Source of the DNA: an uncultured Acidobacteriota bacterium
GTDB taxonomy: Bacteria > Acidobacteriota > Thermoanaerobaculia > Gp7-AA8
Reading direction: 5' to 3'
Assembly (NCBI GenBank): GCA_963741955.1
Contig: CAVUKB010000005.1
Span: 1,088,001-1,152,000 of the forward strand
DNA length: 64,000 nt
This document shows, in pieces, positions 17,216 to 36,138 of the stretch. Position numbers and translations under genes: made by a program. Below the pieces are notes generated by a model. It was given only the letters and a program-made list of their open reading frames with translations, was not told the origin of the DNA and searched no databases. The stretch's first letter is position 1; the number at the start of each line of letters is the position of its first letter.

Positions 17216-17222
17216 CGGCGCC

Positions 17223-18893: not shown

Positions 18894-18920
18894 GATCCCG
18901 CAGCGTAGCGCCGCGGGATG

Positions 18921-19724: not shown

Positions 19725-19837
19725 ACGGTCCGGAGCATACCTCGGCGATCCGGGGGCTCTACGGTGGGTGGAATTCGGCCGTGGCACCGTCAATCTGTCG
19801 GACAGGGTCGACAGGTCCGACAGGTCCGACGCGCGGT

Positions 19838-20251
19838 TCACGCCGTCGCGCGCTTCTTCATCGCCTCGTCGAGAAACGCGGCGAACGACTCGCTGGAGAG
19901 ATCGAAATCTTCTTTCATTCTCAAGCGGATCTTGTCGGTCCTCTCGTTGCGGCGTGAAACATTCACGGAGCTCGGAAGCCCTAATTTTTCCGACAGTGAT
20001 TCGTCGGAATCGTATCTCGCGGCCCCGAGTCGTTCGGCGAGAGCTGCGCCTTCGAAGGCCTCCATTTTCCCCGCTTGATCTCGATGATCACGGCGTTCCC
20101 CTGCGGGTCGAGTGCGAGAAGATCAACGGTCTCGGACGTCGGGAATGATCACCTGTCGTCCGATCACCAGGAGCGGTTCACGGAGAATAGAAGGATCTGC
20201 GGCGATCCGCTCCTCGAGCCTCTCTTCGAGGAACTTCTTGGAGAGGCACAC
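19838..20251 (-). pseudogene. Degraded NucS/EndoMS-like (PD-(D/E)xK) endonuclease gene
   Basis: Hand translation gives LEERLEERIAADPSILREPLLVIGRQVIIPDVRDR, a frameshift, then VDLLALDPQGNAVIIEIKRG, followed by a short C-terminal remnant ORF at 19838-20065. Confidence 0.65.
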
Positions 20252-20486
20252 GGCTCTCCTTCGAAGTCGATCAGAATTGCAGCGGCGACAAGCTCTCTAG
20301 CCCCAATGGCCCGAACTAACTTAAGGGGCACTGTGGGTGTTCACAGAGCCGATGCGCGGAGTTACTGCGCATCTGCCGCAGGTGTCGCCTCGTTGCGTTC
20401 TGAAGGCGATCTGCGCGGCCACGGCCGGAGCCGTGGCGCCCCTCGGAGAGGGGATCCTTCGCTGCCCAGCAAGCTCGCGCAGACTC

Positions 20487-22010
20487 CTAGCTCGTTACGG
20501 GGCGAAAAAGACCCAATCCGAACGTGCTCGAGTGGCCCAGGCGGATCGGTCCGATTACCTGAGAGGGGAATATCAGCCGAACGAACTGCCCACGCCGGTC
20601 ACCGATGAACCCCTTCCTTCCTCCTTCCCGACGGGGAACGTGAACCGCTACCCACAGAGGATCGTCAACCCTCTCGACCACCACGTCGTCCGCGGCTGCG
20701 ACACCGCGCAGGCGCAGCTCGCGTCGAACTTGAGCCGCGATCGACTCGCTCTCGCGCTCTTTACCGCCGCGAAGATGGTGGCGGGGTGGGACATAGGGAG
20801 TGACGGACTCCCAGATCCGAGAGCCGATGCCATCGAACCCTGGCGGCGGCGGGACGGCGCGATCGAGGGGAATCAGCCTGACCTTCCACGCATCATTATC
20901 CGGGCCTGCGACGGCCCAGGAGAGATCGCGTGCCGCTGCGCAAAGCATCGCTTCTTGCTCCGGTTCATCGAATGCCCGGCGATCACGCCACGCGAGCAAC
21001 CGCGTCGGCTGCCCGTCCTCCAACCATACGAAATACTCGACATGGCGGTGCCCCTCGAGCGGGGCGCCGTCGGCGTCCTTGCCAGTCATCTCCGCGATAC
21101 CTTCTCGGATGCTGCGATCGGCACGACTCCAGGCCGGGTTCGGGACTCCGGTCTTCAGCCTGAGAAGCTCTCGAACCACAGCGCCTCGGAACCGCGAGGT
21201 GAGCCGCACGATCGCGCGCGGATCCGGCGCGACGTTCCACCCAATTGCGAACTGGATCAGGTGACAATCGGGCCGATGCACTGGTACGCGTCTGCGTTCG
21301 TGCGAGGCAGAGCGCGGTGGTCGAACCGCGTAGAGCCATTGCGCGCCGGGAGGGACGGCTCGCTTCACGGCTTCAGGATTGTCGGTCGTCCGCTCGATGT
21401 CGTCGCGCGTGGCTTCCTCGAGCGGCGACAGCACGGGGACGGCACCTGCCGTGCGCTTGTCGACTAGCGTGCAGTTAGGTGTTGGGGTGTCGTCTGGCGA
21501 ACCGACGACGCAAATGCGCGTGAGTGTCTCGGCGCGCCCGAACCAGGTCATGCGCTCGAGGCACTGTGCGAGCAGTGCGCGGAGCTCCTCGGTCCAGTCA
21601 TCACCTTCGAGGAACCACCACACGGGCGACTCGGGAGGGACGCACCAGTAGTTGTCCTGCACGAGGCTCGTGCCGTAGGTGCGCGCTCCCGCCTTCTTCT
21701 TCTCCGCCGGTCGCCAACCGAACTCGGTCGGATGGTACTGCCTCAGCGGGCTTCCCTTGCGCGCATCCGGTGGGAGATGGAACGCATACGTGCTCCTGCA
21801 CAGCGCGGCCTGCAGTTGTTCGAGGTTCGCGAGGTCCGGCTGTTCCTCCATCTCACGCGCCCACTGGTACCAGCGCGCGGTGACTGCGCGAACCAGGCGC
21901 CATGGGCTCGGCGGCCACTCGCCGTGCGGGTCATCAAACGGATTCACGCGCCACGGCGTGGCGTGGTAACGCCCCAGCGGGAACTCTTGTCGGAGGACGA
22001 TTTGCATCAC
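20487..22010 (-). CDS. csb2: Type I-G Csb2 (Cas5/Cas6 fusion)
   Basis: GRYHATPW...EWPPSPWRLVRA, WFGRAET, WESVTPY, and C-terminal G-loop GPIRLGHSSTFGLGLF. Confidence 0.92.
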   Translation of the reverse strand: MMQIVLRQEFPLGRYHATPWRVNPFDDPHGEWPPSPWRLVRAVTARWYQWAREMEEQPDLANLEQLQAALCRSTYAFHLPPDARKGSPLRQYHPTEFGWRPAEKKKAGARTYGTSLVQDNYWCVPPESPVWWFLEGDDWTEELRALLAQCLERMTWFGRAETLTRICVVGSPDDTPTPNCTLVDKRTAGAVPVLSPLEEATRDDIERTTDNPEAVKRAVPPGAQWLYAVRPPRSASHERRRVPVHRPDCHLIQFAIGWNVAPDPRAIVRLTSRFRGAVVRELLRLKTGVPNPAWSRADRSIREGIAEMTGKDADGAPLEGHRHVEYFVWLEDGQPTRLLAWRDRRAFDEPEQEAMLCAAARDLSWAVAGPDNDAWKVRLIPLDRAVPPPPGFDGIGSRIWESVTPYVPPRHHLRGGKERESESIAAQVRRELRLRGVAAADDVVVERVDDPLWVAVHVPRREGGRKGFIGDRRGQFVRLIFPSQVIGPIRLGHSSTFGLGLFRPVTS

Positions 22011-23110
22011 GCGCTCTCTTCCGGGCCCTCGTCATCTTCAGGGCTGCTGGTGCTGTCGGCCTGACCTTCACGATACAGCTCTTCACGCGGCCAGAACACG
22101 TCGGTAATGGACTCCTTGCTGAAGCCGGCGTTGGCGATTGCTGTCCGGATGTCGACTTCGATCCCGACTTCCTTGCCACCGCTCTGAATCGTCGTGCAGA
22201 GGAGGTAGCAGCCGGACCTGTAGCGGAACGGCGACTCGAGGAGCCTTCGGATCTTCCACAGCGCGATAGCGACGAGCAACTCCTGTTGCTTGTCCGAGAG
22301 ACCCAACGTGGAGCCGCCCGTCTTTCGCCCAAAGGACCGGATCAGACTGACGTCCAGGACGAAAGTGGCCCGAATCGATTCAGCGGTGGCGTCATCGACC
22401 GCGAAGATCGGCTGGCCGGATGTCGTCTTTCCGAGCCGGTCGAACTTCACGCCGGAGCGATCGACGCGCCCCGCGCCGAACGCCTCGAGGTGCGCCGTCA
22501 GCGCGCGCGGGATCTTGATCTGCCACTGTGGGAACAACACCCCATGAACGAGCGAGTTAGGGTCGGCTTCAAAGATCGTCTTGAAAACATCCCACCACTT
22601 TGCAGGCGGCGGATGGGCCTTCGAGCTTCCGGGCAGGACGATGCCGAACCTGGTGACGAGGTCGTCCTCGAACGTGTCGTCACCCTTCGCTCCGCCGTTC
22701 CTCAAAGGCACGCCGTCGAGGAAGTACGAGGACGCGATGCGGTGGCCTTCGGTGAGGCTCGTAACGACGACCTCGCGCTCGTTCGTGGGTTCCTTACCTT
22801 CCGTCGTGTTCGTGACGCACCGGAGGTACGGCAGACCATCGAGATCCTCGACGAGGTCGAGGTCGTGCGCGCTACGCTGGCAGACCGACTCGAGATGGTT
22901 CGCCATGCTCGCGGCGCTGTCGACGATGCAGACGTTCTCGGTGCCGCCGTCCTTGCGCGGAGCCTTGTAAATCACATGACCGATCTCCGGGAACCCCGCA
23001 GGCTGGAATCGGTCACCAACGATCGGCTCGAGCGTCGCCGTCAGGACGAGCGGCGACGCCCCCTTCAATACCTCGGCCGGGGTAAGTTTCTTCTTCTCTG
23101 CTTCAGACAT
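22007..23110 (-). CDS. csb1: Type I-G Csb1 (Cas7u backbone)
   Basis: DRFQPAGFP, VDSAASMANHLE, EGHRIAS, DPNSLVHGV, SGVKFD. Start taken at MSEAEKK. Confidence 0.88.
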   Translation of the reverse strand: MSEAEKKKLTPAEVLKGASPLVLTATLEPIVGDRFQPAGFPEIGHVIYKAPRKDGGTENVCIVDSAASMANHLESVCQRSAHDLDLVEDLDGLPYLRCVTNTTEGKEPTNEREVVVTSLTEGHRIASSYFLDGVPLRNGGAKGDDTFEDDLVTRFGIVLPGSSKAHPPPAKWWDVFKTIFEADPNSLVHGVLFPQWQIKIPRALTAHLEAFGAGRVDRSGVKFDRLGKTTSGQPIFAVDDATAESIRATFVLDVSLIRSFGRKTGGSTLGLSDKQQELLVAIALWKIRRLLESPFRYRSGCYLLCTTIQSGGKEVGIEVDIRTAIANAGFSKESITDVFWPREELYREGQADSTSSPEDDEGPEESA

Positions 23111-25340
23111 TTGCTTCGCCTCCTTGTCGCCGGCGTCGAGGACGAAGCCAGCGCTCGAACAGGACCGTCCGATCGCGGTCCGGAATGCTGAACAACAGGG
23201 CCGCGGCGAGGCGGTCCGGATCATGTGCGTTCCAGGGGACATCGAATGACGCGACGCGCGCGCCGGCCATCGCGTAGCGGCTGCTCGCGAGCCGTGTCGC
23301 CGCGTCGAGGTTGCCGGATCGGATCAGCGTGACGAGCGAGCGCGCCGCTTCCGTGGTGCGTGCGCCGGTCGCCTCCGTAAGAAGATCGCTCGGCGAGAGG
23401 TCGCGGACGACCAGGGGACGCTGGTCGACGAGGGGCTGCATCAGCCCGAGGAGGACCAGTTCACCTTCCGCTCGCGGAGCCTGGACCTTCCCATGGATTA
23501 AACCGCGGGCCTCCTGCGGGATCCTTCTCCAGTCGAAGAGCGCGAGCCGCGAGAGCCATGCTGAAAACAGCGACTCGTCGACGTCGGCGGCGAGCCACTG
23601 ATGCACGTGCGCCGTCGTAGCGGGTAGAGGTGAGCGGCCGGAAGGGAGTTTCGTTTGCGTGGCGTCCAGCCTGGCTTCTTCGAGAAGTCTTCGCGAGAGC
23701 ACTGAACCCATGACACGAGCAAGCTTACCCGGCCCCCATACCCATCGCGCCGGAGCGATCTTCGCGTGTTCGAACCATCCTGGCTTGGTGGTCCAGTCGT
23801 ACTCGTACTTCCCGTTCCTCTCCCTGGCCCACTCCACACCAAAGCGAAACGCCGCAAATGGAAGCGCAGCAGGAAAGGCCGACACGAGTGACAACGCGAG
23901 CCGCGCCTCGGCTCCGGCTTGCTCGTCCGCAAACAGCGATGGCAGCCATTCGAGTGGCAGCGGCTCCCATCGAACCTTGCCCTCGCGGAAGCTGCGATTG
24001 CGGTCGATGCGATTCAGTGCAGCGGTGATCGCGTCGAGCATCTCGATGGCCGCCTCGGAGCGGCCGGGATCTGCCGCGACGTCGAGGAGGGCCGCTTCGA
24101 TGGGACCACGGAGTCCCACGAAGCGCTTGCCATCGCGGGGAAAGCCGCGCTGTTCGATTAGTGCGGTGACGCGTTCGAGCGTGAGAGAGGTGGAGACACT
24201 ACTCCCACCGGCACCAGCATCGAGAGCGAAGCGAGCTTCCAGGCGCGGTTCGAACGTGTTGACGCTGGTAGTCCTGCCGAGCGTGAAGCGGCGAAACTCG
24301 CTGACGCCCGCATCTACGCCACGCTTTCGAATCGCCGTCGCGAATTCGGCGGGCGTGAGTGATCCACGTCCATGCAGTTCGGCTCGGCCGCGCAAAAACA
24401 GCGCGCTCGCTTCAGCGAGCGTCATCGGTCGGGACCACAACGGGGTCCAGATCTCGCCACGGAGACGATCGGCCTCCTTTTCAGCGCTCGCAGCGATGGG
24501 CTGGGTCACGAAGGGGAACGCACCGACGGCACGCGTGCGAGCACCGAGGCGTCGCGATGCACCGCCTGCGAGAAACGCCAATCCCTCGCAGGCGAGCACC
24601 ATCGCCCAGGGAGAGATCAGCCCCTCGCGCGCAGGGGACTGGCCGCTGTTGTAGAGCTTCGTCGCTTCGCTGAACCAGGAACCGGCGACGAGCCCGTCGA
24701 CGAGCCAAGAGACCGTACGGCTTACGAGCAGAGCCTCGAGCTCACTACGATTTCTCTGCAATCTGGCTGGGGCTTCCCGTTCGTACGTGCCGAGGGCTTT
24801 CTTCTCACGTTTCTCGCGTGCGGCTTTCTGCTTGTCGGTTTCGTCCTTCTTTGGCTCCCTGGCCCCGGGAGCCGCTGGAGAGAGCGCTTCGATCGCCTTT
24901 GCCCACCCATTCGAGAATGCGCGCTTCCCCGCGTTTCCTCCGCTGCCGAAAAGGGGATTGAAGCTCACGCGCGCATGTGGCACCGCGTGCGCGGCGAAAA
25001 CCTCGAGTTCCCGCTCCTCAGCAGAGGCTTGCCAGAGAGCGAGCGGCAGTCCTGACTTCGCCTTCGTTCCCCGCTTCTGCTTCTCATTCCAGCGTCGATC
25101 GTACGTGGTCCATGCGCGTTCGCTGGCAACACGCACGAGCTCGTCGAGCAGTGCATCCAGCGTCGGCGGCCCACCGACTACGTGCAGCACGTCGTCGCGC
25201 CACGCAATGCGCGTGCTCGGCCACTTCCGGCTGAGCACACGAAGGAGGCCGAGGGACGCGAGGTAGTTGCCGAGGCTGTCGGGCGAGAGGCCGGGCAGCG
25301 GGAGAGCTGTAAGGCGAGGTTCTCGTCGGAGCGCGGTCAT
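23103..25340 (-). CDS. csx17: Type I-G large subunit Csx17 (Cas8g)
   Basis: LGNYLASLGLLRVL, NPLFGSGGN, PWAMVLACEG, FPF, RGEIWTPLW, RGVDAGVSEFRRF. Confidence 0.88.
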   Translation of the reverse strand: MTALRREPRLTALPLPGLSPDSLGNYLASLGLLRVLSRKWPSTRIAWRDDVLHVVGGPPTLDALLDELVRVASERAWTTYDRRWNEKQKRGTKAKSGLPLALWQASAEERELEVFAAHAVPHARVSFNPLFGSGGNAGKRAFSNGWAKAIEALSPAAPGAREPKKDETDKQKAAREKREKKALGTYEREAPARLQRNRSELEALLVSRTVSWLVDGLVAGSWFSEATKLYNSGQSPAREGLISPWAMVLACEGLAFLAGGASRRLGARTRAVGAFPFVTQPIAASAEKEADRLRGEIWTPLWSRPMTLAEASALFLRGRAELHGRGSLTPAEFATAIRKRGVDAGVSEFRRFTLGRTTSVNTFEPRLEARFALDAGAGGSSVSTSLTLERVTALIEQRGFPRDGKRFVGLRGPIEAALLDVAADPGRSEAAIEMLDAITAALNRIDRNRSFREGKVRWEPLPLEWLPSLFADEQAGAEARLALSLVSAFPAALPFAAFRFGVEWARERNGKYEYDWTTKPGWFEHAKIAPARWVWGPGKLARVMGSVLSRRLLEEARLDATQTKLPSGRSPLPATTAHVHQWLAADVDESLFSAWLSRLALFDWRRIPQEARGLIHGKVQAPRAEGELVLLGLMQPLVDQRPLVVRDLSPSDLLTEATGARTTEAARSLVTLIRSGNLDAATRLASSRYAMAGARVASFDVPWNAHDPDRLAAALLFSIPDRDRTVLFERWLRPRRRRQGGEANV

Positions 25341-26224
25341 GGCGCGAGCCTCCAGAAGCCGTCAGGCTCAATCGACCACCGGAGCGGGCTGTTCGAGGAC
25401 GAGCCGGGCTGCCAGAAGCACGAGGCTTGGTCAAGTCTGCGAATCGAGCCCCGATCCCAGCCAGCGAGTAACTCCAAGGCACCGCTCAGCGACGCTCCAG
25501 GATAGGCGTGGGCCCACGCCGTGGACGCTTCCAGTTGAGGCAGATCGGCATCGAGCGTTACCGCCCCACCGAACGCTCCCCCTTCCTTCACGAGGTCGAA
25601 TGCGATGCGGCGTAGACGGCCCAAGCCATAGCGGGTGTCACCGCCAACGAACAGTGTGTCGCTCCCGTCGAAGCGACGCCGGTCCGCCGGGTACCTATCC
25701 TCGGCGTTCACCCTCCGCATGAACACGTAGCCGAGCATCGCTACGGGCCCCGCGTCACGGCCTCGCACGTCTCGCCACCGCGCTTCGATGCACTCGGTCT
25801 CTCGGAGCGAGCCATCGTCAGCTGCGTCGGTGCTTGCGTCAATTGACGTACCTGCTCTGGTCGAGAGGAGGCGGCGACGGAAGTTTCGATCGCCCACTGG
25901 CTGCCGGGCCTGATCCTCGCGTGCCCACGCGAGCCCCTCCCCGGTGAGGAACATCGGCAGCCACACTTGCCAGCCCGCTTGCAGCTTCTCCGCCGGGAAC
26001 AAGTAGGTGAAGCGATAGTCCGTCTGCAAGTTCTCGCCGACGGTCTGGTACTGCGGCTCCTTCCCGTTCCGTGCTTCCCGTCGCGACAGCTCGGCCGTCA
26101 ACGCGCCCCACAGCGCGCGGGCGGGCACGTAGAGCCGCGTGCGATTGAGCGAGCCCGCAGGCGGCATACCGACATGCAAGGGGCCGTCGAGCTGCCAGAT
26201 CCAGCGAAAGAGTGACCAGCTCAC
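25337..26224 (-). CDS. cmr3: Cas5-group RAMP, Cmr3-like (type III-C)
   Basis: PLHVG...RTRLYVPARALWGALT, GSLRETE, VGGDTRYGLG; last gene of the cmr module. Confidence 0.75.
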   Translation of the reverse strand: MSWSLFRWIWQLDGPLHVGMPPAGSLNRTRLYVPARALWGALTAELSRREARNGKEPQYQTVGENLQTDYRFTYLFPAEKLQAGWQVWLPMFLTGEGLAWAREDQARQPVGDRNFRRRLLSTRAGTSIDASTDAADDGSLRETECIEARWRDVRGRDAGPVAMLGYVFMRRVNAEDRYPADRRRFDGSDTLFVGGDTRYGLGRLRRIAFDLVKEGGAFGGAVTLDADLPQLEASTAWAHAYPGASLSGALELLAGWDRGSIRRLDQASCFWQPGSSSNSPLRWSIEPDGFWRLAP

Positions 26225-26610
26225 GTCGTCCTCGCTCCACCACCCTGCGCAGCCTTGGCGTGATAGCGAGCGTAGACCAGCGCGCGGTGCAGGAGGTCCC
26301 GCGCGAAGAGCAGCTTGTCGAGGTCACCTGCGAGCTGCTGGAGCGCCGCGAACAGGTCGTTGTTCGTGGTCGCACCGAGCAGTGCGTTCCGCTGGTTCGG
26401 CTGCTGGCGAAGGAAAGTCGCGAGCTCTTTGCTCGTCGTTTGGCCCCACTGCTTCTCACGCGCATGGAGGTAAAGGAACAGCGCGTAGACGCCCTGCTCT
26501 TCGAGTACGCCGAGGGACTTGGTGATGCTGTTCTCGGTGTCCTTGTTGCCCGACGATGCTAGGTTGGCACCAAGCTTCGCGCAAGCGGCGTCGAGGTTCT
26601 GCACGGTCAC
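26221..26610 (-). CDS. cmr5: Type III small subunit, Cmr5/Cas11-like
   Basis: 129 aa, all-helical; KSLGVLEEQGVYALFLYL...LVYARYHAKA; position after cmr4. Confidence 0.8.
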   Translation of the reverse strand: MTVQNLDAACAKLGANLASSGNKDTENSITKSLGVLEEQGVYALFLYLHAREKQWGQTTSKELATFLRQQPNQRNALLGATTNNDLFAALQQLAGDLDKLLFARDLLHRALVYARYHAKAAQGGGARTT

Positions 26611-27563
26611 TGCGCACCTCCAACCGCGAGGACTTCGAGGCGGCCCATGCCGCGCGTGCCCATGCCGCCGATGCCAAGCGCTGCGAGCAGCGGGTACGCC
26701 TTGGCGACGACATCATGGACCTGCTGCGCGTTCGTCACCGTCGGTGCGTTGCGGCCCTCCTTGAAGTGGCGTGGATCGCGGCAGGTTACGTCCCACGTGA
26801 GTACCGCCCCGCGCGGAATCGCCTCGTACGTGAAGAGAGCGCGGTCCTCCGCAGCGCCCGTCGCCGGGTTGATGGCCACCGAGGTGCGTACCTCAAGGTT
26901 GCTGTTGACGACGTGGCCAAAGAGCTTGTCGGAGACGAGCACGAGCCGCTCGACGACACGCAGGTCCTTGTACAGGTCCTCGCGCACGCCGAAGGCCTTG
27001 ACCGCGTCCTTCACGGCTTGCAGCCCCGACCACGACTCCGCTTCGAGCTGCAGCCACCCGAGGTTGATGGGCCCCTTCTTGCCGCCACGCTGGGCCTTGT
27101 TCTGGCTCACGTCGTCGACGGTCGCGCTCGCACCCACGAAGCGCAGCGCGCTCGGCGAGGTCACCCACAGCGGGCCCTCGCGCGACGCGACTGGAAAGAG
27201 CACCACCTGCGCATCGCTGAACGCGGCGAGACCCGCGAACTTCTTGTGGCCGAAGACAGCGTTGATCGGCCCCGCACCGTCGTTGTTCGCCGAGCCCTGG
27301 CCCGCGTCGTCGGGGTAGTACTGTCGCGTATCGTTCGGCGTACGAGCGTCCTCGAGCGCCATCGCCACGTAAGCGCGGTGGACACCCGCGAGGCTCGAAC
27401 CAGGAATCTTCGGGATGCGCGTGACGGGATCGCGCACGATGGTGTTGTCGACGCGCCCGAGCCGCGCGCCTCCCGTCCCGATGTGAATCGGGTCGATCGC
27501 GATCCCAACGGTGCGAAATACTTGAAAACTGCACTGCTTCGTCTGCTGTTGGCTATTGCTCAT
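26607..27563 (-). CDS. cmr4: Cmr4 (Cas7-group target RNase)
   Basis: DPIHIGTGG...RVDNTIVRDP...PKIPGSS, FSDAQVVLFPVAS, RTSVAINP...ALFTYEAIP, IGGMGTRGMG. Confidence 0.9.
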   Translation of the reverse strand: MSNSQQQTKQCSFQVFRTVGIAIDPIHIGTGGARLGRVDNTIVRDPVTRIPKIPGSSLAGVHRAYVAMALEDARTPNDTRQYYPDDAGQGSANNDGAGPINAVFGHKKFAGLAAFSDAQVVLFPVASREGPLWVTSPSALRFVGASATVDDVSQNKAQRGGKKGPINLGWLQLEAESWSGLQAVKDAVKAFGVREDLYKDLRVVERLVLVSDKLFGHVVNSNLEVRTSVAINPATGAAEDRALFTYEAIPRGAVLTWDVTCRDPRHFKEGRNAPTVTNAQQVHDVVAKAYPLLAALGIGGMGTRGMGRLEVLAVGGAQ

Positions 27564-30517
27564 GGGGTCACTCCGATCGTCTGCTTGAGTACGTGCAGGT
27601 GCCAGCTCAAGACACGCTCGAGCAGGCCATCACGGGCTGCTTGTTCAAGGTCCTGTAGCTCCCGACCTCTGGCGTTCCACTCGTTGGCGAGCACTGCGTG
27701 CACCCAGTCGTTCCACGCTGCCTCGTCCAACGCGCCGTCGGAATCGGTCCAGCGCTCGCGCGCTTCGCGCAGTGACTGCTCGACCGCGCGGGCTGCCGTG
27801 GGGCTCGGCACGATCCTGCGAACCTGCTCCCAGATCGTACGGCGTCGGTCCCATTCGGACAGCGGATGCACCTGCACCGGCTCGAAGCGGCGAGCGGTCG
27901 AGTCGAGGAACAGCGACGCGAAGCGCGAAGGCTCGACGCAGACCTCGTCACCGAGCTTGAGGTCCGCGGCACGTCGATACACGACGGTAGTGCCATCGGG
28001 CCGAGGCGCGGTGAAGTCGCGTGGCTCGCGCTCCGCGCCGCCGACGGCGAGGTTCGGGTAGTAGACATCGTCCCGACCGTCCGCGAGTTGCGCAGGCACT
28101 TCAACGTCTTCGTGTCTCTGGCCGGGGCGTTCGAACGATAGCGTGGTGGTTCCTGATTGCGTCACGGCGTGCGCGACGCGCCATTGCTCGACACCGCGTG
28201 CTCCCATGTCGTCCTCCACGTTGCGCGTGGCCTCGATGACCGCCTGAAACGGCGTCTTGCGTGGGAAGCCGACCACGCCGATGCTCAGCGGAAGGCGGTC
28301 CCACACGCGCGCCATCTCCTTGCGCCACTTCGTGATGACGTGCCCCACGCACACCGCCTCGGCTCCGAGAGGAACGAGCACCCGGAAGCGCTCGGGGTTC
28401 TCTTCGAGCACGATGAGCGGACGATACGAGGCCAACACGCGCTCAGCGGTGGTGACACTCTCGATGGCGAAGCGCCGCCGCTGCCCATCGTCGCCTCGCG
28501 CCTCGAACTGCATCCCCGTAAGAATCGTCGCGTCTCCGTCCGGACCAAGCACGCGCGCGAGGTTGCAAACCGTCACGAAGTCGCTCGAGCGGCGCAGGAT
28601 CTCGAACGGCGCGTTCGGGGCAGTCGGCAAGGGTCCGGCGTAGACCTCGCCGACCCGCAGACCATTCGTGTCGCCCGAGAGCGTAAGGCTCAGCCGCTGG
28701 GTGCGAGTGCCGCCGTCGCCCGAGACGAGCTGGCGGAACTCATCGAGCGCTTCGGCAAAGAACGCACGCGTCGTGCGCCAGAAGCGATGCACGCGCCCCG
28801 GCGAGGCGTTCTTGCGAAAAAGCTGGTGCGTCAGCCAGGCGGCACGGGTCGTGTCGTCGAGCGAGGACCACGCGGGAGCGCCTGCGCGATCTTCGACGAC
28901 CTTCTGAAAGAAGTCCTCCAGCGCGGTCTCGTGGGCGAAGCCGTCGTTCAGAGTCTCCAGGACTGCATCCGACAGCCTGCCTTTATTCAACATCGGCGAT
29001 TTGACGAAGCCTTCGACGTGGGTGCGGAGCGAGTCGCGCGGCGCGTTCGCGTCGATGGCCGTAAGCGAAGTGTTGTTCGCCCGCCACTCGACCACGCTCT
29101 GCGCCCGCAGCGAGTCGACGTGCGTGCCATCGAGCCAGCCTTCAAGGCCTAAGCTAAACGTCAGCAGGGCGACGCGGTCGTTCGCGTCGGCGACCTCGCT
29201 GATCCAGATGGTGTCGCCGCCGTTCTTCTCCCACGCCGCGCGCCGTCCCGTGCGCCGCTCATAGCAGCTCTTCGAGACGTCCTGCTTCCGGTCGCTCTCG
29301 TTGTTCGACTGCGCGCCCGCGCGAACCAAGGACACCGGGCAGACGTGCTTGCCCGTACCGCCGTCGCTCGCGATCGACCACGCCCGGTGAACCGGTACTT
29401 CGAGCACGCGGCGCGCCTCGGCCAGCTCGCGCGACATCGCGACAAAAGAGCGCGTCGATGACGAGAGCCGTACCAGCGGCGGCGTCTCGAAGGCGTGCGA
29501 TCGCGCGAGTTCGTCGACGCGCATCTCGATGCCGGTGCGCAACGTCTCGGCCAGCGTGTCGTCCACACTGTGTTTGCCATCGAGGCGATGACCGGGAAAC
29601 GTAAACGAGATCGCACGCTCGTCGCGATAGACGCAGGCACCGAGGGCGAGGTCGACCTCGATGAACGCGCAGACCTCATGGAAGAACGCAGCGATCGCGT
29701 CGCGCGTGCCTGTCCAGTCTCCGATGCGCACGGCGCGGGACTCGTAGTGCTCCGCGCCGAGGCCCACCGTGAGCACGCGCCAGCGCGTGTTGGCCTTGCT
29801 ACCGTTGCCCGTTTCAAACGAGGTGCCCAAGAGCACAGCGCCCGCCGCTGCAGCCTTGAATAGGGCGGATGCAATGAAGGACTGGTCCCACAGCGTGACG
29901 TCGTTATTGGGGACGCGCGTCTCGGCGAGCGTGCTCGCAAACGCCTCGCGCAGCCAGCCCGACGGGCCGATTGCAGCGTCACGCCACGTGCACCATTCGG
30001 CGAGGTGCGTCGGGTCCTTCACCCGCGCAGCGAGACCGTCGATGAGCGCACCGATCTGCGTCTCCGTGTTCGACCAAGCATTCTTGGCAAGGATCGCAGG
30101 CGGGGTGGAGCCCAGAAGGTTCCGGACCGGGCGACCGAACGCGGTCGCGAGCCACGTCTGCCCCGTCGGCTGCTTCTGGTAGTCGGCGGGCGTGTTCTTC
30201 TCGATGCCCGAGGCCATCGTATGCGCAGCCTGCAGGAGGCCGAGCACGCCATCACTACGCTGTCGGTGCTTTTCGAAGAGGTCGTTGGGCGAGATGGTCT
30301 GCGTTCCGAACGACGGCAGCGTCCCGAACTTGCTGTACAGGTTCGACGCCCACGTCAGCTCGTTCCACGTCGTGCCACCCGAGGTCGCGTTGGACGCCTG
30401 CTGCCGAACGAAGTCGGGGTGCGCCTTGCCCGCCATGTGCAGCCAGCCGATGGCCTCGCACGCGAGGAGCGCAGCGCGCTGGTCACGCAGGGGCTGGAGC
30501 GGATCGTTCGCGCTCAT
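27560..30517 (-). CDS. cas10: Cas10 of subtype III-C (Csx11 family)
   Basis: 985 aa; EAIGWLHMAGK, ETRVPNNDVTLWD, TIWISEVAD, KNASPGRVHRFW. Position between cmr6 and cmr4. Confidence 0.85.
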   Translation of the reverse strand: MSANDPLQPLRDQRAALLACEAIGWLHMAGKAHPDFVRQQASNATSGGTTWNELTWASNLYSKFGTLPSFGTQTISPNDLFEKHRQRSDGVLGLLQAAHTMASGIEKNTPADYQKQPTGQTWLATAFGRPVRNLLGSTPPAILAKNAWSNTETQIGALIDGLAARVKDPTHLAEWCTWRDAAIGPSGWLREAFASTLAETRVPNNDVTLWDQSFIASALFKAAAAGAVLLGTSFETGNGSKANTRWRVLTVGLGAEHYESRAVRIGDWTGTRDAIAAFFHEVCAFIEVDLALGACVYRDERAISFTFPGHRLDGKHSVDDTLAETLRTGIEMRVDELARSHAFETPPLVRLSSSTRSFVAMSRELAEARRVLEVPVHRAWSIASDGGTGKHVCPVSLVRAGAQSNNESDRKQDVSKSCYERRTGRRAAWEKNGGDTIWISEVADANDRVALLTFSLGLEGWLDGTHVDSLRAQSVVEWRANNTSLTAIDANAPRDSLRTHVEGFVKSPMLNKGRLSDAVLETLNDGFAHETALEDFFQKVVEDRAGAPAWSSLDDTTRAAWLTHQLFRKNASPGRVHRFWRTTRAFFAEALDEFRQLVSGDGGTRTQRLSLTLSGDTNGLRVGEVYAGPLPTAPNAPFEILRRSSDFVTVCNLARVLGPDGDATILTGMQFEARGDDGQRRRFAIESVTTAERVLASYRPLIVLEENPERFRVLVPLGAEAVCVGHVITKWRKEMARVWDRLPLSIGVVGFPRKTPFQAVIEATRNVEDDMGARGVEQWRVAHAVTQSGTTTLSFERPGQRHEDVEVPAQLADGRDDVYYPNLAVGGAEREPRDFTAPRPDGTTVVYRRAADLKLGDEVCVEPSRFASLFLDSTARRFEPVQVHPLSEWDRRRTIWEQVRRIVPSPTAARAVEQSLREARERWTDSDGALDEAAWNDWVHAVLANEWNARGRELQDLEQAARDGLLERVLSWHLHVLKQTIGVTP

Positions 30518-31314
30518 GCAGCGCCTCCCAGTAGCTTCGTCACTTCGTCGCGAACGTTGGGGAGCTTCCCCTCACGTGAACCATCGCGCCATCGCAGGTG
30601 CGCCTTCGTGACAATGGCGACTCCCCAGCCCGAGGTGCGCTTGGCCGAGAATCCATACTCGGTGATGAGAGCCTCGACGGCATCGAGCAAGAGCAGCACG
30701 GCCTTCTGTCGGTTCACGTTCGCCGTCGTCGCGCCGGGAGCCGGTGCATAGAGAACGCGCAGCGTGCCGGTCGCACCCGGCGGTACGACCTCGTAGAGGA
30801 TCGGCTTGGTGCCCGACTTCTTTGTGCGGTCGTGCGGGTTGATGACCTCGAAGCCGATCTGTTCGAACCACGTGGGGCGAAACCCGAGCGCGCCGCGTTG
30901 AAAGTGCTTGTCCTCATCGCGCTCGTTGCCGAAGAGGTGGACGACCTCGGGCGAGTCCTCCCACTTGCTCAGCGCGTTGTTGCTCCCTTCGAGGTGCGCG
31001 AGCAGCCCGGTCCGCATCCGTGCGGCCCAGCGCAGGAGCCCCTTCCAACTCGAAGCGGGCATGAACGGCGCGCCAAAGACGTGGTCGCGGTGAACGGGGT
31101 TGTCGAGGACGTGGAACGGCAGATCATCCTTCGAGAACCACGGAGCTTGGAACTGGAAGGTGACGGCGAGCGCGAACCACTCGCGCAGCAGCGTCGGCGA
31201 AGACGGCTCGTAGGCGGCGTGCCCCTTCGGAGGGTTCGACTGGTAGTCGCGACGCGCGGCGTCCTTGTCGTCCTTCAGCTTCGCGAGAAGTGGATCGATG
31301 TGCTCGAAAATCAT
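30514..31314 (-). CDS. cmr6: Cmr6-like RAMP (Cas7 group)
   Basis: PFMPASSWKGLLR, HLFGNE, EVINPHDR...PILYEVVP, YGFSAKRTSGWG. Confidence 0.82.
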   Translation of the reverse strand: MIFEHIDPLLAKLKDDKDAARRDYQSNPPKGHAAYEPSSPTLLREWFALAVTFQFQAPWFSKDDLPFHVLDNPVHRDHVFGAPFMPASSWKGLLRWAARMRTGLLAHLEGSNNALSKWEDSPEVVHLFGNERDEDKHFQRGALGFRPTWFEQIGFEVINPHDRTKKSGTKPILYEVVPPGATGTLRVLYAPAPGATTANVNRQKAVLLLLDAVEALITEYGFSAKRTSGWGVAIVTKAHLRWRDGSREGKLPNVRDEVTKLLGGAA

Positions 31315-32240
31315 CGCACGCTCTCCGTCGGCGGGCAGAGCCGGGCGAGCAGGGCGTCGCCCGAGACGAACCAGTCGTTGGACGCTGCGGGTTCGCTCCA
31401 GATGGGCCGCAACGCGTCGCGCACGGCATCAAGCTCGTTGGTCTTCTCCACGAACCCGAAGGTGCGCTCGGGCGACTTGAAGCTGAAGACCTTCTTGCTG
31501 ACTCCTCGGCTGCCTGCACGCCAGGAGTCGCCTTGGGCCGATGAGGACTTCGCCTCGGGGCGCCCGAGGACCTTATTGAAAGAGGACGCTACATCGCCGG
31601 TGCGCCTCAGGTGCTTCCCCTCGACGAACCACATGTGGCTGCACGACGCCCAGGCCGCGCCGTTGACGGTGGGCTTCTTCGTCGACGCGTTCACGTAGCT
31701 CGCGAGTTGCTCGCGTGGATGCGTCGCCGACGCCGTGCCGACCCACCCCACGAGCCCGAAGTCGGCGTGCTGCACCTTGTTGTTCTGCTCCGACGGCTTG
31801 AGCACCGTTTTGCCGCCGAGCGCGCCGAACTCGCAGATGAGCCGCAGTGTCAGCTCGAGGAGGGCCCACTCCTCGGCCTTCACCGCGCGAAGTGGCGTGA
31901 AGCGCAGATGGAACGTCGTGCCCTTCGTCAGCTTCGACGCAATGACGGCGCCCTGCGCGTTGCGCACGTCGAAGCGCACCTTACGCGCCCAGCCCGTGCA
32001 GCCAAACAGCTCGCAGACCAGGCAGTGCTCCGTGCCAAGGCACGCCTTCTGGTTCGCCGACGGATCGCACGGCTCTCCACCAAGCCCGCGCACCAACACC
32101 TCGAACCACCAGCGGATCGAGCCCAGAAGGCCAGTCGTGATGAGGCGGTTGGCGTTCCTCGACTTCGCTGTACTCGCGTCGCCGGTCCAGACGTCGGTCA
32201 GCGCCTGCAGTTCGTACGTCCGTGCGCCCGAATTCGTCAT
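31311..32240 (-). CDS. cmr1: Cmr1-like RAMP (Cas7 group)
   Basis: LTDVWTG, TGLLGSIRWWFEVLVRG, CLVCELFGCTGWARK, GALGGKT. Confidence 0.85.
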   Translation of the reverse strand: MTNSGARTYELQALTDVWTGDASTAKSRNANRLITTGLLGSIRWWFEVLVRGLGGEPCDPSANQKACLGTEHCLVCELFGCTGWARKVRFDVRNAQGAVIASKLTKGTTFHLRFTPLRAVKAEEWALLELTLRLICEFGALGGKTVLKPSEQNNKVQHADFGLVGWVGTASATHPREQLASYVNASTKKPTVNGAAWASCSHMWFVEGKHLRRTGDVASSFNKVLGRPEAKSSSAQGDSWRAGSRGVSKKVFSFKSPERTFGFVEKTNELDAVRDALRPIWSEPAASNDWFVSGDALLARLCPPTESVR

Positions 32241-35044
32241 TTCGGTCTCCCAATCGCTTCAGCCACCTCGCTGGGCCTGGTGCACGCGCTCGGGTTCTCG
32301 CTCGCGCGCCAGTCGGCGATGCGGACGAGCGCTTCCAGGTATGCCAACGTAAACGGACCGAGATGGCGCGGCTCCGTCTCGGGCACGACGCCGGCGTCGC
32401 TCTTCTCCTCCGGCCGCCAGGGTCCGAGAAGATCGGCAACGAGGCCCGTCCAGCCATGTCCGGTCAGCACGAACTCGCTCCCCTCCCAGCGTCCCTCCGC
32501 CCCGTCCTTTGTGATCGAGAAATCGAGCGGCCACCGGTCGTCGCCGATCGCGAGTGTGTCCGGCTCGCTGCGCACTCCGAAGACGTCGTCGCCCTCGCCA
32601 GTCGTCGAACGAAGCACGGTACGCGCCTTGCCGTGATGCGTCGCAGCCAGATAGACCGCGAGTGCCGGGTAGGTGGCACCGCCATCGCGGTACTTCCGCC
32701 ACATCGCGAGCGCAGAGGCGACCTCGTGGCGAAGGCCCGGACGAAACTGGACGTGCCCGGCCCAGTGAACCGCGGAGATGGCACGCAGTGAGCTCAGGCC
32801 GGCCTCGTCGAGCTTGTCGTCGATCGCCCAACGAAGGCGTATGACCGCTCGACGACCGCGTCGGCGCGCTTCATCAGGGAGGGAAAGCGCTGTCGGTCGG
32901 AGCCGGGCGACCGTCTCCCGTACAGCGGTTGCATCGCCCACGACGTCGACCGCCAACACGCGCGGGCTCTTGGCAAGCAACGCGTCGGGTATGCCGGAGC
33001 GATCGGGCAACGCGGTCTGCCACTGCGGATGCGCCTTGCCGAGATCGTGCAGGCCCGAAGCTTCGACGACGGCGGAACGCGTGTCCGCAGTCAGTGAGAG
33101 CGCATCACACAGCCTCTCTGCCTCACGGCGTGCGTCCTCGAGGTGGTCGGCGAGACGCGACCAGTAGCCGACCTCGGTCCATGCATCGTCTCTCAGAGTC
33201 GCGCCGCGCCCGGCGCGCGGCACTTCGGCGAGGATGTTCCGCTTGTCTCCCGTCCAGCCTTCGCTGGCGTCATAGCCTCCGACATCGCGCTTGAGCATGA
33301 CGAGCATCCCGGGGCGGATGTCCCAGTGGTTCACGCGCTCCCAGCGGTCCGCCTCGTCGTCCCACAGCCACGCTTTGCCCCTGCTGCTCTCCAGCATCTT
33401 CCGGACGCGGACGAAGGAGACGGGACAGCCCTCCTTCGCGGGTTCCAGCAAGGGACCGTCGAGGTCTTCGCCGCGCGGAGGGTTGTCGCCCGACCAGTCG
33501 CGCCAGAACACCGTCACGTCGAGATCGGGATCGGTGCCGCGCACGAACGCGCTGACGTCGGTGAACCCGCCGTGGACATCGCGCTCTGTCGAGAAGAGTC
33601 CATGCACATCGAGGGCGCGCGGCAGCGGGCTGGGCCTCGGCTGAAGTGCTTCGCCCAGCTCCTCTGAACATTGCGTGCTCAGATCGGTGATCGCCTGCGC
33701 GAACGCCTCTCTCTGCGAGAGGGGCGCGAACTCATCGACGAGTTTCCTGGCGCGCTCGATGTCGGAGGCCTCGTAAGGCCCAATGCGCTCGACCTTCCTG
33801 GCTGCGCTCTCCCTGGGTGTCTCCCAGATCCAGGCACGAGCGTCCTGGTCGTCTCCCTTTCGATTCAGGCGACCGAGACGTTGAAGCATAGAAGCCCAGG
33901 GCGCGAGCTCCGTCCAGAGGCGATGCGCCGAGATGTCCACCCCCGCCTCAATGACTTGCGTGCTCACGCAGATCAGGCCGGGGTCGTCCCGCGGTAGCTC
34001 GCCTGCTTTGCGGCTGGCGTCGAACTCGAGAAGGCGTTTCTCGTGTCGGGCGCGATCTTCGCGCCGGAACCGCGAGGTCAGCAGAACCTTGTGACCCACC
34101 AGCGACATCGCGCGGAATACCTCGCGCGCCATATCCACAGTGTTGCAGATGACGAGCGAGAGCGTGCCCGCCGCGTGCTTTTCCACCACGGCCTTCGCGA
34201 TGGCTTCGGGCGTGATTGCCCCGGACTTCACCGCGCCTCGCTTCTTCGCGCTAGTGATTTTCGCGTCCGCCGCAGTCGGCCGCCACCACTCGACGAGGCG
34301 CTTGGCGTCTCGCCACCACTGGAGGTTCTGATCGTTCTCGAGTGTGGTCGTCAGCTTCCCCTCGAATGCGACCTGCTCCGGCGACACTTCGCCAATCCCC
34401 TCGCGCGTTCGGTCGGTGGTGCTCAGAAACTTCGTGCCGACGGTGGCACTCATCCACGTCGTCAGGGACGGCTTGAGCGTGGGAAACCGCTTCCTGCGCA
34501 TCCAATCGAGCTGCGAAGTCGTCCAGAGGCCCGGCCCCATGAGCTGAACCTCGTCGATGAGCCAGCGGCAATCGTTGTTGAGCAGGCCGAAGTGCATCGG
34601 CCACTCGAAGCGACTCATCGCGTAGCCGCGATTGAGCGCGCGCGACAGAAGCTGGTCCTGCGTGCCAATGAGCACCCAAGGTTTCTCGGGCAGCCGGACC
34701 CACTCCTCTTCGATCGACCCACCCATGAGCTGAAAGACTGCGATGTCGATGTCGGGCTGCAAAGCTTTGAAGTACGCCCGGAGCCGGTCTGCGGTTTGCG
34801 TTACGAGGCTTCGCATCGGTAAGCAGTACACGACGTGCAGCGGCTCTGGCTGATTCATGATAAACCGACGCCAGGCCCACGCGAGAACCACCTCTGTTTT
34901 CCCGAGGCCCGTAGGGACGGGGAGAATGTCCGGCAGACCACCGGCGGCAACTTCGAGCTGCCAGAGGTAGGGCTGGAGACCGCCCGTCGCCATCGCGAAG
35001 AAGTCGGCGAACGTTTCAGAGGAGCCAGTTGCCAGCGTGTTCAT
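32237..35044 (-). CDS. cas3: Cas3 helicase-nuclease with C-terminal HD domain (type I-G arrangement)
   Basis: PYLWQ, PTGLGKT, DEVQ, MSAT, STQVIEAGVD and QRLGRLNR. C-terminal HD region DH...LHDLGK...RHE...HHG. AAGGAG RBS before ATG 35044. Confidence 0.95.
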   Translation of the reverse strand: MNTLATGSSETFADFFAMATGGLQPYLWQLEVAAGGLPDILPVPTGLGKTEVVLAWAWRRFIMNQPEPLHVVYCLPMRSLVTQTADRLRAYFKALQPDIDIAVFQLMGGSIEEEWVRLPEKPWVLIGTQDQLLSRALNRGYAMSRFEWPMHFGLLNNDCRWLIDEVQLMGPGLWTTSQLDWMRRKRFPTLKPSLTTWMSATVGTKFLSTTDRTREGIGEVSPEQVAFEGKLTTTLENDQNLQWWRDAKRLVEWWRPTAADAKITSAKKRGAVKSGAITPEAIAKAVVEKHAAGTLSLVICNTVDMAREVFRAMSLVGHKVLLTSRFRREDRARHEKRLLEFDASRKAGELPRDDPGLICVSTQVIEAGVDISAHRLWTELAPWASMLQRLGRLNRKGDDQDARAWIWETPRESAARKVERIGPYEASDIERARKLVDEFAPLSQREAFAQAITDLSTQCSEELGEALQPRPSPLPRALDVHGLFSTERDVHGGFTDVSAFVRGTDPDLDVTVFWRDWSGDNPPRGEDLDGPLLEPAKEGCPVSFVRVRKMLESSRGKAWLWDDEADRWERVNHWDIRPGMLVMLKRDVGGYDASEGWTGDKRNILAEVPRAGRGATLRDDAWTEVGYWSRLADHLEDARREAERLCDALSLTADTRSAVVEASGLHDLGKAHPQWQTALPDRSGIPDALLAKSPRVLAVDVVGDATAVRETVARLRPTALSLPDEARRRGRRAVIRLRWAIDDKLDEAGLSSLRAISAVHWAGHVQFRPGLRHEVASALAMWRKYRDGGATYPALAVYLAATHHGKARTVLRSTTGEGDDVFGVRSEPDTLAIGDDRWPLDFSITKDGAEGRWEGSEFVLTGHGWTGLVADLLGPWRPEEKSDAGVVPETEPRHLGPFTLAYLEALVRIADWRASENPSACTRPSEVAEAIGRPK

Positions 35045-35330
35045 TCTCTCCTTCACACGTAACGGGGCGGAACGATCGTATCAGTATTCCATTCCGCGTC
35101 ACCGCGTTGCAACGCGGCGCCGCGAAATCTCATATCGTTTGGGCTTTTCGAGTTCCTACCGCAGCGGCCTCGATTCTGGCAGACGCACGTTTGACGAGCA
35201 GGACGAGCAGCCCGTACAGCGAGCTGTCGCGAAGAATTGCGTCGTAAACGCGGTGCGGAGCCCCAAGCAACGGGATCTCCATGATTAAGTTCGGCCACGA
35301 GCGTTCTCGCGAGTTCCTCCACATGCCTCG

Positions 35331-35362
35331 AACGTACTCCCCTCTCCTGTCAGTTTCTGTCA
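35331..35362 (-). promoter_or_regulatory. Putative WYL-dependent promoter, copy nearest cas3
   Basis: Minus strand TGACAG-AAAC-TGACAG-N10-TACGTT, inside a ~110-bp block matching 39121-39230. Confidence 0.5.
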
Positions 35363-35537
35363 TTCGCGATTCTTCTTTCCCGAGCCTCGAGCCTCGACTC
35401 TCCTTCGACGGGAGCGGGGAGCGGCGCGAGTGGGTATGAGCGATCTTCCGTCGGTTCGATTCACCAAACTTTTGGGGCATCGGTTCGAGCAACGAGTCAC
35501 GCCGGACGGACGGGCTGCGTTTCGAAGTGCGCTCCAG

Positions 35538-35903
35538 GGTCCTTGAAAGTTCGGCCACATCTGAAAGTTCGGCCACGAGCGTTCTCGCGAGTCTTCCCAC
35601 ATGGCGCGAACGTACTCCCCTCCCCTGTCAGTTTCCGTCATCCGCGATCCTTCTTTCTCGAGCCTCGAGCCCCGAGCCCCGAACCCCGTCTCCCGCTCGT
35701 CGACTCTCGCGCTTCCTTCGCGGCGGGACGGGAGCGGGCCGGGGTCGCGTCGGATGCGCGCGCGGGTTTGCGCGAGTGACGCTCGTGCGCGGCGGCCGCG
35801 CCGTTCGCGATCTCCGCAACGCGATCGACGAGCTCCGGAGGCGCGATCGCCTGCGCGGCGCCGCCGAACGTCACCACCCATCGCGCGATCTCCTCGAGGT
35901 GCG
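35538..35903 (-). pseudogene. Diverged duplicate of the WYL gene 3' end plus downstream promoter region
   Basis: AHLEEIARWVVTFGG.AQAIAPPELVDRVAEIANG matches 39113-39460; second promoter motif at 35609-35640. Confidence 0.8.
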
Positions 35904-36035
35904 CCCTCCGGGCTTACCCGGGGCTACCTTCCGGCACGCCTCCGGCGTGCCTCGGCGGTCTTTCTCCCGTTTCAGGCTCACGGATTGTGATTTTGTACGA
36001 GGGATCTCCTGCGCTTCCTCGAGCGTGAGATGGAA

Positions 36036-36092
36036 GGCGAGGTCCTCCGAGAGCCGCTCGGCATTCCGCACTCGTAGGCGAGCCCCGATCAT
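36036..36092 (-). pseudogene. Possible hsdS deletion scar
   Basis: MIGA-RLRVRNAERLSED resembles the extreme C-terminus of HsdS proteins (GELRVxDAER), at the position where hsdS is expected. Confidence 0.3.
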
Positions 36093-36138
36093 GCTTCTTC
36101 CCTATGTTTTCTATTCTCTCGACCGGTGGCGACGAAGC

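Follow-up and report, generated by a model that had tools for sequence, protein, structure and literature searches.

Loci that combine two interference modules with one adaptation module are an established category of CRISPR-Cas systems, the hybrid loci of CRISPRCasTyper, for which Bernheim et al. 2020 is cited. As far as its dataset rows go, a study of myxobacteria (PMC11237760) contains three loci called Hybrid(I-G,III-B), three called Hybrid(I-G,III-D) and one called Hybrid(I-C,III-B), and those rows list type III-C as stand-alone loci only (including L001 and L003 in our numbering of loci). We analyzed a stretch of 64,000 nucleotides (nt) from an uncultured Acidobacteriota bacterium (assembly GCA_963741955.1, contig CAVUKB010000005.1, positions 1,088,001 to 1,152,000), referred to here as the window. 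Our analysis supports the reading of one locus in the window as a single, tightly coupled operon that holds a complete type III-C effector module together with a complete type I-G system, the III-C genes lying between cas3g and csx17 (cas8g).

This locus is like the I-G hybrids in the rows of the myxobacterial dataset (PMC11237760) in that one cas cluster contains a I-G module and a type III module together with a single array, whose 36-nt repeats end in TTGAAGC. It differs in that the type III partner is III-C; the dataset rows give no gene order. Two other reports place type I and type III effectors on common arrays, with type III as a back-up when type I is escaped (PMC4666368, PMC5576922). 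The described pairs, Cst with Cmr (III-B) in Pyrococcus furiosus and I-F with III-B in Marinomonas mediterranea, resemble the locus in the window in that type I and type III draw on common arrays. The Cmr modules of both organisms are III-B with an active Cas10, and they lie beside or apart from the type I operon and are not known to lie between cas3 and cas8. In P. furiosus, a separate Cas6 processes CRISPR RNA (crRNA). What appears to be new here is the I-G/III-C pairing with its nesting; the hybrid I/III category and the sharing between type I and type III, which is established experimentally, were known already.

Type III-C is reportedly the MTH326-like system of the 2015 classification. 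The module in the window has what is general to III-C, that is, the same gene order, an extremely diverged Cas10 without a cyclase site, and no cas6, cas1 or cas2 of its own. In contrast to III-C in general, the module is apparently translationally coupled inside a I-G operon, and its Csx11 family appears to lack the HD dyad.

We found an unbroken chain of ten open reading frames (ORFs) on the minus strand (positions 20487-35056), in the order cas3g, cmr1, cmr6, cas10c (Csx11), cmr4, cmr5, cmr3, csx17, csb1, csb2 (Table 1). A preliminary description of this DNA, made from the letters alone, had given this order and had claimed that every junction overlaps, including both seams between the two systems. 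Both claims held when the ORFs were typed with NCBIfam, Pfam and PADLOC profiles and the junction sequences were read. Models specific for I-G and models specific for III-C both matched, and all nine junctions (9/9) overlap, eight of them by 4 nt (ATGA or GTGA) and csx17/csb1 by 8 nt. The inter-system seams, at 32237-32240 (cas3g/cmr1) and 25337-25340 (cmr3/csx17), are each ATGA. GGAG-type motifs resembling Shine-Dalgarno sequences precede seven starts, cmr1 through csx17, and cas3g starts either with GTG at 35056 or with ATG at 35044. Judging from the overlaps, the operon is probably co-translated. Across the window the G+C content stays between 0.62 and 0.67 and does not jump at either seam; at third codon positions it is 0.78-0.87 in the III-C genes versus 0.72-0.80 in the I-G genes, a small difference. 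A scan of positions 16300-36200 gave no promoter-like site, and 15 terminator-like sites compared to 13.0 ± 3.7 in shuffled sequences.

The I-G part consists of Cas3g, whose HD domain is C-terminal (residues 632-920 of 939 by Pfam Cas3_HD), Cas8g, Cas7g and the Csb2 fusion, followed by a Cas4-Cas1 fusion, a candidate cas2 and an adjoining array of 36-nt repeats ending in TTGAAGC. Its order departs from the canonical contiguous one: six genes (6.9 kb) part cas3g from cas8g. The III-C part has a Cas10 of the Csx11/Cas10c family, matched over residues 7-978 by the PADLOC Cas10c model for 'CAS-III-C' (1.3e-117), the order cmr1-cmr6-cas10-cmr4-cmr5-cmr3, and no cyclase (GGDD) site. This is the III-C order that the preliminary description had cited, and it was the same in all 66 loci (66/66) with a Csx11 relative that we found by scanning one genome per species, as far as the contigs reach. 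Read against the CRISPRCasTyper rule for hybrids (at least six cas genes in one operon, two subtypes by specific models), the locus has 13 genes called cas, of which cas2 is untyped, and both subtypes.

Two of the III-C proteins, Cmr5 (129 amino acids) and Cmr3 (295 amino acids), were left unnamed by NCBIfam and Pfam, and the following comparisons bear on them and on Cas10c. A profile from 26 Cmr5 orthologues matched the Cmr5 chain 9arw_F in the PDB (3.9e-4). With AlphaFold2 models, Foldseek matched Cmr3 (predicted local distance difference test score, pLDDT, 83) to subunits of the Cas5 type from III-D, Cmr and Csm complexes (E from 2.7e-6) and Cas10c (pLDDT 79) to Cmr2 and Csm1 (E about 1e-6). 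Profiles of Cas10c and Cmr3 gave no significant match to PDB sequences. The product of cmr3 would bind the 5' tag of the crRNA. We also considered type III-B and rejected it: the Cas10 in the window had no match to Cmr2 (TIGR02577), and the gene order differs from cmr1-cmr2-cmr3-cmr4-cmr5-cmr6.

Table 1. Features of the I-G/III-C locus in the window, in the direction of the cas genes.
Feature	Positions	Strand	Assignment and supporting matches
cas3g	32237-35056	-	type I-G helicase-nuclease; TIGR02621 5e-179; Pfam DEAD, Cas3-like_C_2, Cas3_HD
cmr1	31311-32240	-	RAMP; TIGR01894 1.8e-14, Pfam RAMPs 7e-18, PADLOC Cmr1 1.7e-10
cmr6	30514-31314	-	RAMP; PADLOC Cmr6 4.3e-59, Pfam RAMPs 6e-13
cas10c (Csx11)	27560-30517	-	III-C large subunit; TIGR02682 1.9e-83, 281.3 bits (cut-off 248.95)
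cmr4	26607-27563	-	backbone RAMP, presumed target-RNA nuclease; TIGR02580 2.7e-33, exceeds cut-off
cmr5	26221-26610	-	Cas11 small subunit, 129 amino acids; PADLOC Cmr5 'CAS-III-C' 8e-36 and 6e-35
cmr3	25337-26224	-	Cas5-like subunit, 295 amino acids, last III-C gene; PADLOC Cmr3 9.7e-71
csx17 (cas8g)	23103-25340	-	I-G Cascade large subunit; TIGR04113 3.8e-143
csb1 (cas7g)	22007-23110	-	TIGR02570; Pfam PF09617 1.6e-26
csb2	20487-22010	-	Cas5-Cas6 fusion; TIGR02165 1.9e-27
four-helix-bundle gene	18921-19841	-	four-helix-bundle (23S rRNA IVP-like) protein with topoisomerase-type zinc ribbon; TIGR04258 1.8e-21, PF01396
cas4g/cas1g	17223-18893	-	fusion, adaptation enzyme; NF049935 1.4e-216
candidate cas2	16922-17215	-	ORF, 97 amino acids; tblastn matches adjoin cas4/cas1 in related loci
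CRISPR array	10690-16704	-	82 copies of a 36-nt repeat; 81 unique spacers (31-41 nt)

Both seams were also present in the contigs of a second assembler. One Logan contig from run X1 covers positions 24800-29866 with no differences and extends 1,535 nt further into csx17, bridging the cmr3/csx17 seam. Another from the same run covers 30036-32800 with no differences and extends 2,516 nt further into cas3g, bridging the cas3g/cmr1 seam. Run X1 is a soil metagenome that holds 99% of the sampled words and is probably the source sample; that is, the assembler is a second one and the reads are probably the same. Runs X2-X4 hold small shares only: X2 has a few short, mostly identical pieces, and X3 and X4 have diverged relatives of III-C genes in which the seams are not resolved.

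By scanning metagenomes with Csx17 we found a second instance of the arrangement, in a diverged contig (L115) that has cas3g, cmr1, cmr6, cas10c, cmr4, cmr5, cmr3, csx17, csb1, csb2 and cas4/cas1 in the same order as the window. The ten genes are 70-91% identical in amino acid sequence to those in the window. The ratio of nonsynonymous to synonymous substitution rates (dN/dS) is 0.08-0.24 for all ten (0.16 for cas3g and 0.08 for cmr4), at dS of 0.55-1.17. All ten genes are thus under purifying selection, with no decay of the III-C genes. In L115, too, there is overlap at the seams, of 1 nt at cas3g/cmr1 and of 8 nt at cmr3/csx17, and the junction sequences and the tails of Cas3g differ between the two loci. 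The preliminary description had named a chimeric seam, and decaying cmr genes in this genome only, as findings that would speak against it; the X1 contigs argue against the first and the dN/dS values with L115 against the second.

The locus is the only CRISPR-Cas system in its genome (5.44 Mb in 16 contigs, 99.1% complete), and the III-C module is the only type III system. All copies of the window repeat in the genome (82/82) lie in one array, all RAMP-family matches (3/3) lie in the III-C module, and there is one Cas1 and one Csb2 (TIGR02165). There was no match in the genome to the stand-alone Cas6 families TIGR01877 and PF01881, and a k-mer scan of the genome for the periodic repeats of other arrays gave plain tandem repeats only. 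The only candidate pre-crRNA nuclease in the genome is encoded by csb2. Since there is one array, one Cas1, one Csb2 and no Cas6 that matched, the III-C module probably uses crRNAs from the I-G array that have been processed by Csb2. Sharing of Csb2 between the two complexes, which the preliminary description had raised as a possibility, is the most economical reading.

The repeats and their tails are consistent with this. On the minus strand, along which the cas genes run, the array repeat in the window ends in ...CCCCATTGAAGC, with the tail ATTGAAGC, and a leader of about 217 nt lies on the cas2 side of the array. The 36-bp repeat with a -TTGAAGC tail matches the I-G 'G-Type' as it is described for myxobacteria (PMC11237760). 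In other hosts, the arrays that adjoin III-C modules have the tail ATTGAAGC (L015) or ATTGAAAC (L016, L058). Such a tail is the tag to which a Cmr3-type subunit would bind, which fits the use of borrowed crRNAs.

Based on these results, we think it likely that the locus is a composite (hybrid) one in which one adaptation module, one array and one Csb2 feed two interference machines encoded in one operon. In such a locus, Cas4g/Cas1g and Cas2 would fill the single array, and Csb2 would process pre-crRNA for both complexes. The I-G Cascade (Csx17, Csb1 and Csb2), together with Cas3g, would destroy DNA flanked by a protospacer adjacent motif (PAM). A Cmr-like III-C complex would bind the same crRNAs by their 8-nt AUUGAAGC 5' tag and would target transcripts. 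The III-C cassette would have settled in a cas3g/cas8g seam that hosts other defense inserts too. The benefit would be a second layer of interference that does not depend on a PAM or seed and would act against escape mutants.

The seam between cas3g and cas8g is a recurrent docking site for three different defense cargos, a finding that is new here. We compared the seam in 42 loci, which were the window, 18 genome loci in which the seam is visible and 23 metagenome loci (three more metagenome loci were dropped, their Csx17 being identical to that of a genome locus, and several hot-spring contigs were kept though near-identical). The Csx17 proteins of the relatives are 61-76% identical to that in the window. 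Cas3g and csx17 are directly joined in 29 of the 42 loci, mostly by a conserved 11-nt overlap, in agreement with the I-G order cited in the preliminary description; six loci have a type III-D module in the seam, five a KilA-N gene and two III-C. The III-D insert is a five-gene module that encodes a small Cas10 keeping GGDD, a Cas7-Cas5 (Csx10-like) fusion, multi-RAMP proteins, a TIGR03986 RAMP and a Csm6-like CARF protein (PADLOC 1.3e-223). It is found in L067 (867-10002), L068, L074, L080, L083 and L140, and the named genome records among these are from Gammaproteobacteria, Burkholderiales and Gemmatimonadaceae. The KilA-N insert, of about 295 amino acids, belongs to the PADLOC candidate family PDC-S22 (1.8e-121) and is found in L072 (9114-9998), L071, L078, L081 and L132. 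The first inserted gene overlaps the stop of cas3g by ATGA in 7 of the 11 loci with a III-D or KilA-N insert; for the KilA-N gene this is so in L071, L072, L078 and L081.

The insert types are scattered on trees of Csx17, Csb1 and Csb2. Two loci with III-D (L067, L083) and one with KilA-N (L081) each pair with an insert-free locus, with 93-99% bootstrap support in IQ-TREE or 0.97-1.00 in FastTree. By the evidence of these trees, the inserts are cargos that have been gained, lost or exchanged repeatedly. Defense genes embedded in other defense operons, such as PDC-S05/RhuM and PDC-S06 in type I restriction-modification operons (PADLOC), are similar in having a fixed seam and alternative cargo. 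What sets the present case apart from those families is that the host operon encodes a CRISPR-Cas effector and can carry a complete second CRISPR effector as its cargo. In literature searches that covered papers outside subscription-only access, we came across neither a I-G/III-C hybrid nor the cas3g/cas8g seam. Some related arrangements lie outside the seam. The same III-D module stands alone in L106, L108, L110 and L112, and follows csb2 of a distant I-G system in L111. In L105 (Dokdonella), a distant I-G operon directly precedes a I-G/III-D hybrid, and in L030, III-C has the csb2 gene of a first I-G set on one side and, on the other, a DruE-like helicase plus a second cas3g-cas8g pair.

The III-C module was also found in many other settings. 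We compared the window to L001, the closest genomic relative of its III-C module. The two share nucleotide homology (73-81%) from 24 nt within cmr1 to 14 nt short of the cmr3 stop, and in this comparison there was none outside the six genes. The L001 module comes after a type I hsdR, the two overlapping by ATGA. Elsewhere the III-C module follows I-C csd1-csd2 (L037, L050 and L058, with cas4-cas1-cas2 coming after it in L050 and L058), a I-A-like set of cas3-cas8-cas7-cas5-cas1 (L045), cas4/cas1g (L015, where a I-G-type array comes next) or I-G csb2 (L030, L056). In other loci it is beside Hma helicase, methylase or ATPase genes (L009, L017, L021/L022, L024, L066), BREX-3 pglZ (L029, L031; pglZ is one small unnamed gene further upstream) or DISARM-like methylases (L005, L062). 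Of the 34 loci whose upstream flank is readable, type I cas or adaptation genes are found there in 7 and other defense genes in 8, and the flank has no nameable cas or other defense gene in 19. The neighborhoods with Hma, hsdR or BREX-3 may exceed what defense-island clustering gives. From these comparisons, III-C looks like a mobile six-gene cassette that comes without its own cas6, adaptation genes or array and rides in other DNA-targeting defense operons. This guest character of the module is, like the docking site, new here.

Two further observations concern this cassette. III-C and Hma (HmaA, HmaB, HmaC) or hsdR genes lie on the same strand at gaps of -9 to 23 nt. On the Thermus thermophilus HB5018 plasmid pHB5018b (L154, 6123-28373), a Csx11-family module of 41% identity lies downstream of cas3'' and cas4. 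It is apparently interrupted by insertion sequences (IS), with IS3 and IS701 transposase genes among the RAMPs and the Cas10 match on two coding sequences, as in a decaying copy.

None of the 66 Csx11 loci combines cas3g directly upstream with csx17 downstream, a metagenome scan for close relatives of Cmr3 found none, and no Csx11 was found in viral contigs. The exact cas3g-III-C-csx17 nesting is, as far as these searches indicate, known from the window and L115 only. The preliminary description had called the nesting unusual. This was borne out for III-C as the occupant, which is rare (the window and one metagenome contig). It was not borne out for inserts in general, as hybrid I/III loci are established and 13 of the 42 seams carry an insert.

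We found no Csx11 or Csx17 relative in 123 other genomes of the same family, and therefore the whole locus is a horizontally acquired island. The preliminary description had held that congruent trees of the two modules would support a stable hybrid, and such congruence was not seen. The I-G backbone tree (Csx17, Csb1 and Csb2) places the window and L115 apart, not as sisters, and identity profiles indicate that the backbone is mosaic. In the III-C tree, the branching of the window, L115, L001 and L002 has supports of 0.00 and 0.17. These trees are compatible with one origin of the I-G/III-C hybrid and with two.

The predicted activities of the III-C complex are few. No GGDD-like column is conserved among 49 Csx11 sequences, the presumed palm-2 strand of Cas10c reads FRVLVPL in their alignment, and the only GGD of Cas10c in the window (residue 433) is not conserved. 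The N-terminal motif WLHMxGK is invariant in the 49 sequences and there is no Pfam HD match. We read this motif as the HDxGK of other Cas10 proteins with the aspartate replaced. Cmr4 has D39 (GRVDNTIVRD, in a GxVDxxxxR context), which at least 95% of 50 sequences share and which we take to be the RNase catalytic aspartate of characterized Cmr4. Since Cas10c has no cyclase motif and apparently no canonical HD dyad, the output of the complex is probably limited to cleavage or binding of target RNA mediated by Cmr4. A sequence search found no solved III-C structure, and no functional study surfaced in searches that were not aimed at one. According to PMC11229360, III-C has no cyclase sites and no known ancillary effectors, and a recognizable HD domain is present in only about half of the systems.

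Several points weigh against a composite locus with two working interference machines. Both activities of Cas10 are apparently missing, and immunity by RNA cleavage alone is in doubt. At residues 393-418 of Cas10c, where the family has CPVC...C..C, the window has CPVS...S..C. Of four zinc-finger cysteines that at least 94% of 49 relatives retain, the clade of the window, L001 and L002 has lost two or three, and this loss could signal a relaxed function of Cas10c. Csb2 stays bound to crRNA in the I-G Cascade, so a transfer of crRNA to Cmr3 has to be assumed. None of the spacers matched any of 50,697 phage records, which leaves no protospacer from which to read a PAM or the orientation of spacer to target on which type III depends. 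No RNA run that contains DNA of the window was found, and it is from the DNA that we infer co-transcription and crRNA loading. In addition, stable co-inheritance of the III-C and I-G modules is not demonstrated, as the two hybrids are not sisters on the I-G backbone tree.

The strongest of the other explanations, which we still consider unlikely, is that the III-C cassette is a passenger. It would have inserted in a permissive seam of a strongly expressed operon and would be a neutral or selfish hitch-hiker with no contribution to immunity. In favor of a passenger, the seam accepts unrelated inserts (III-D with CARF; KilA-N/PDC-S22), and the I-G tree shows a scatter of insert types on a mosaic backbone. 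III-C is a rare occupant (2/42 loci), and the relative on the T. thermophilus plasmid is riddled with IS elements. However, the six III-C genes are intact and under purifying selection (dN/dS 0.08-0.24 at dS 0.55-1.1 between the two hybrids), and translational coupling is kept at both seams in both hybrids despite their differing junction sequences. The candidate catalytic aspartate of Cmr4 is also kept. These properties argue against a passenger.

Less probable than a passenger is a functional fusion of the III-C complex with Cas3. III-C with a silent Cas10c would be an RNA-guided sensor that recruits or licenses a neighboring helicase-nuclease (Cas3g here; HsdR, HmaA or others elsewhere), leading to transcription-dependent degradation of DNA. 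In its favor, Cas10c has no GGDD, and HM apparently stands where the HD dyad would be, in 49/49 sequences. Large helicases, nucleases or ATPases are frequent as the immediate same-strand neighbor of the module. In the window and L115 this neighbor is Cas3g (overlapping by 4 and 1 nt), in L001 HsdR (ATGA), in L009 and L017 HmaA (21 and 6 nt away), in L021 and L024 HmaC, in L030 a DruE-like helicase and then cas3g, and in L062 a DruE-like helicase. In contrast, 19 of the 34 readable upstream flanks have no called cas or other defense gene, and in the I-C hybrids the module is away from cas3. Clustering in defense islands alone could also give such neighbors.

We regard as more doubtful again the broader form of this proposal, in which III-C modules of the Csx11 family are in general transcript sensors that have no executioner and pass the task to the helicase-nuclease encoded beside them, one Cas3g serves both Cascade and the type III complex, and the seam is a selected docking site for add-on sensors. 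III-D with its Csm6-like CARF protein and the PDC-S22 gene would then be alternative add-ons. Finally, that a III-C contig was mis-joined with a I-G contig is hardly credible: the genome does resemble a metagenome assembly (16 contigs) and the run that best holds it is a soil metagenome, but each seam is bridged without differences by contigs of another assembler (probably from the same reads), the unrelated metagenome contig L115 has the same order, and in-frame 4-nt overlaps at both seams are not expected from a mis-join.

Several features flank the operon or are found elsewhere in the genome. The four-helix-bundle gene between csb2 and cas4/cas1 had no match in PADLOC. It carries a 9-bp tandem repeat at 18951-19020, and a short, weak tblastn match to it is found at the same position in L143. 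Upstream of cas3g (36139-39010 and 39194-40732), a RhuM/PDC-S05 gene and a type I hsdM lie on the same strand, and beyond them is a gene for a WYL-domain protein, the type of a CRISPR-associated regulator (PADLOC WYL 4.6e-48). No hsdS or hsdR was found near the hsdM and RhuM/PDC-S05 genes, and the 1.08 kb between rhuM and cas3g had no family match. The genome is rich in long tandem repeats (40374-42963, 5842-6649 and 7792-8615 in the window, and on contigs C1, C4, C5 and C10), including a 235-bp unit in 11 copies of 95% identity and, in the window, units of 159 and 272 bp. Elsewhere in the genome there are arrays of 69-92-bp units. These tandem repeats have a CRISPR-like spacing without unique spacers.

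Type III-C is the least understood subtype of type III, and its Cas10 appears to be without both known outputs. The locus described here makes the function of III-C directly testable: the module is the only type III system in its genome, it probably shares one array, one adaptation module and one processing enzyme with I-G, and it is under purifying selection. As a compact unit of 18 kb, the locus could be cloned whole and used as a test bed for III-C. The three cargos of the cas3g/cas8g seam illustrate concretely how modules are exchanged within the operon of a CRISPR effector. If the sensor proposal were true, a DNA-guided Cascade and a transcription-dependent type III complex would rely on one and the same Cas3.

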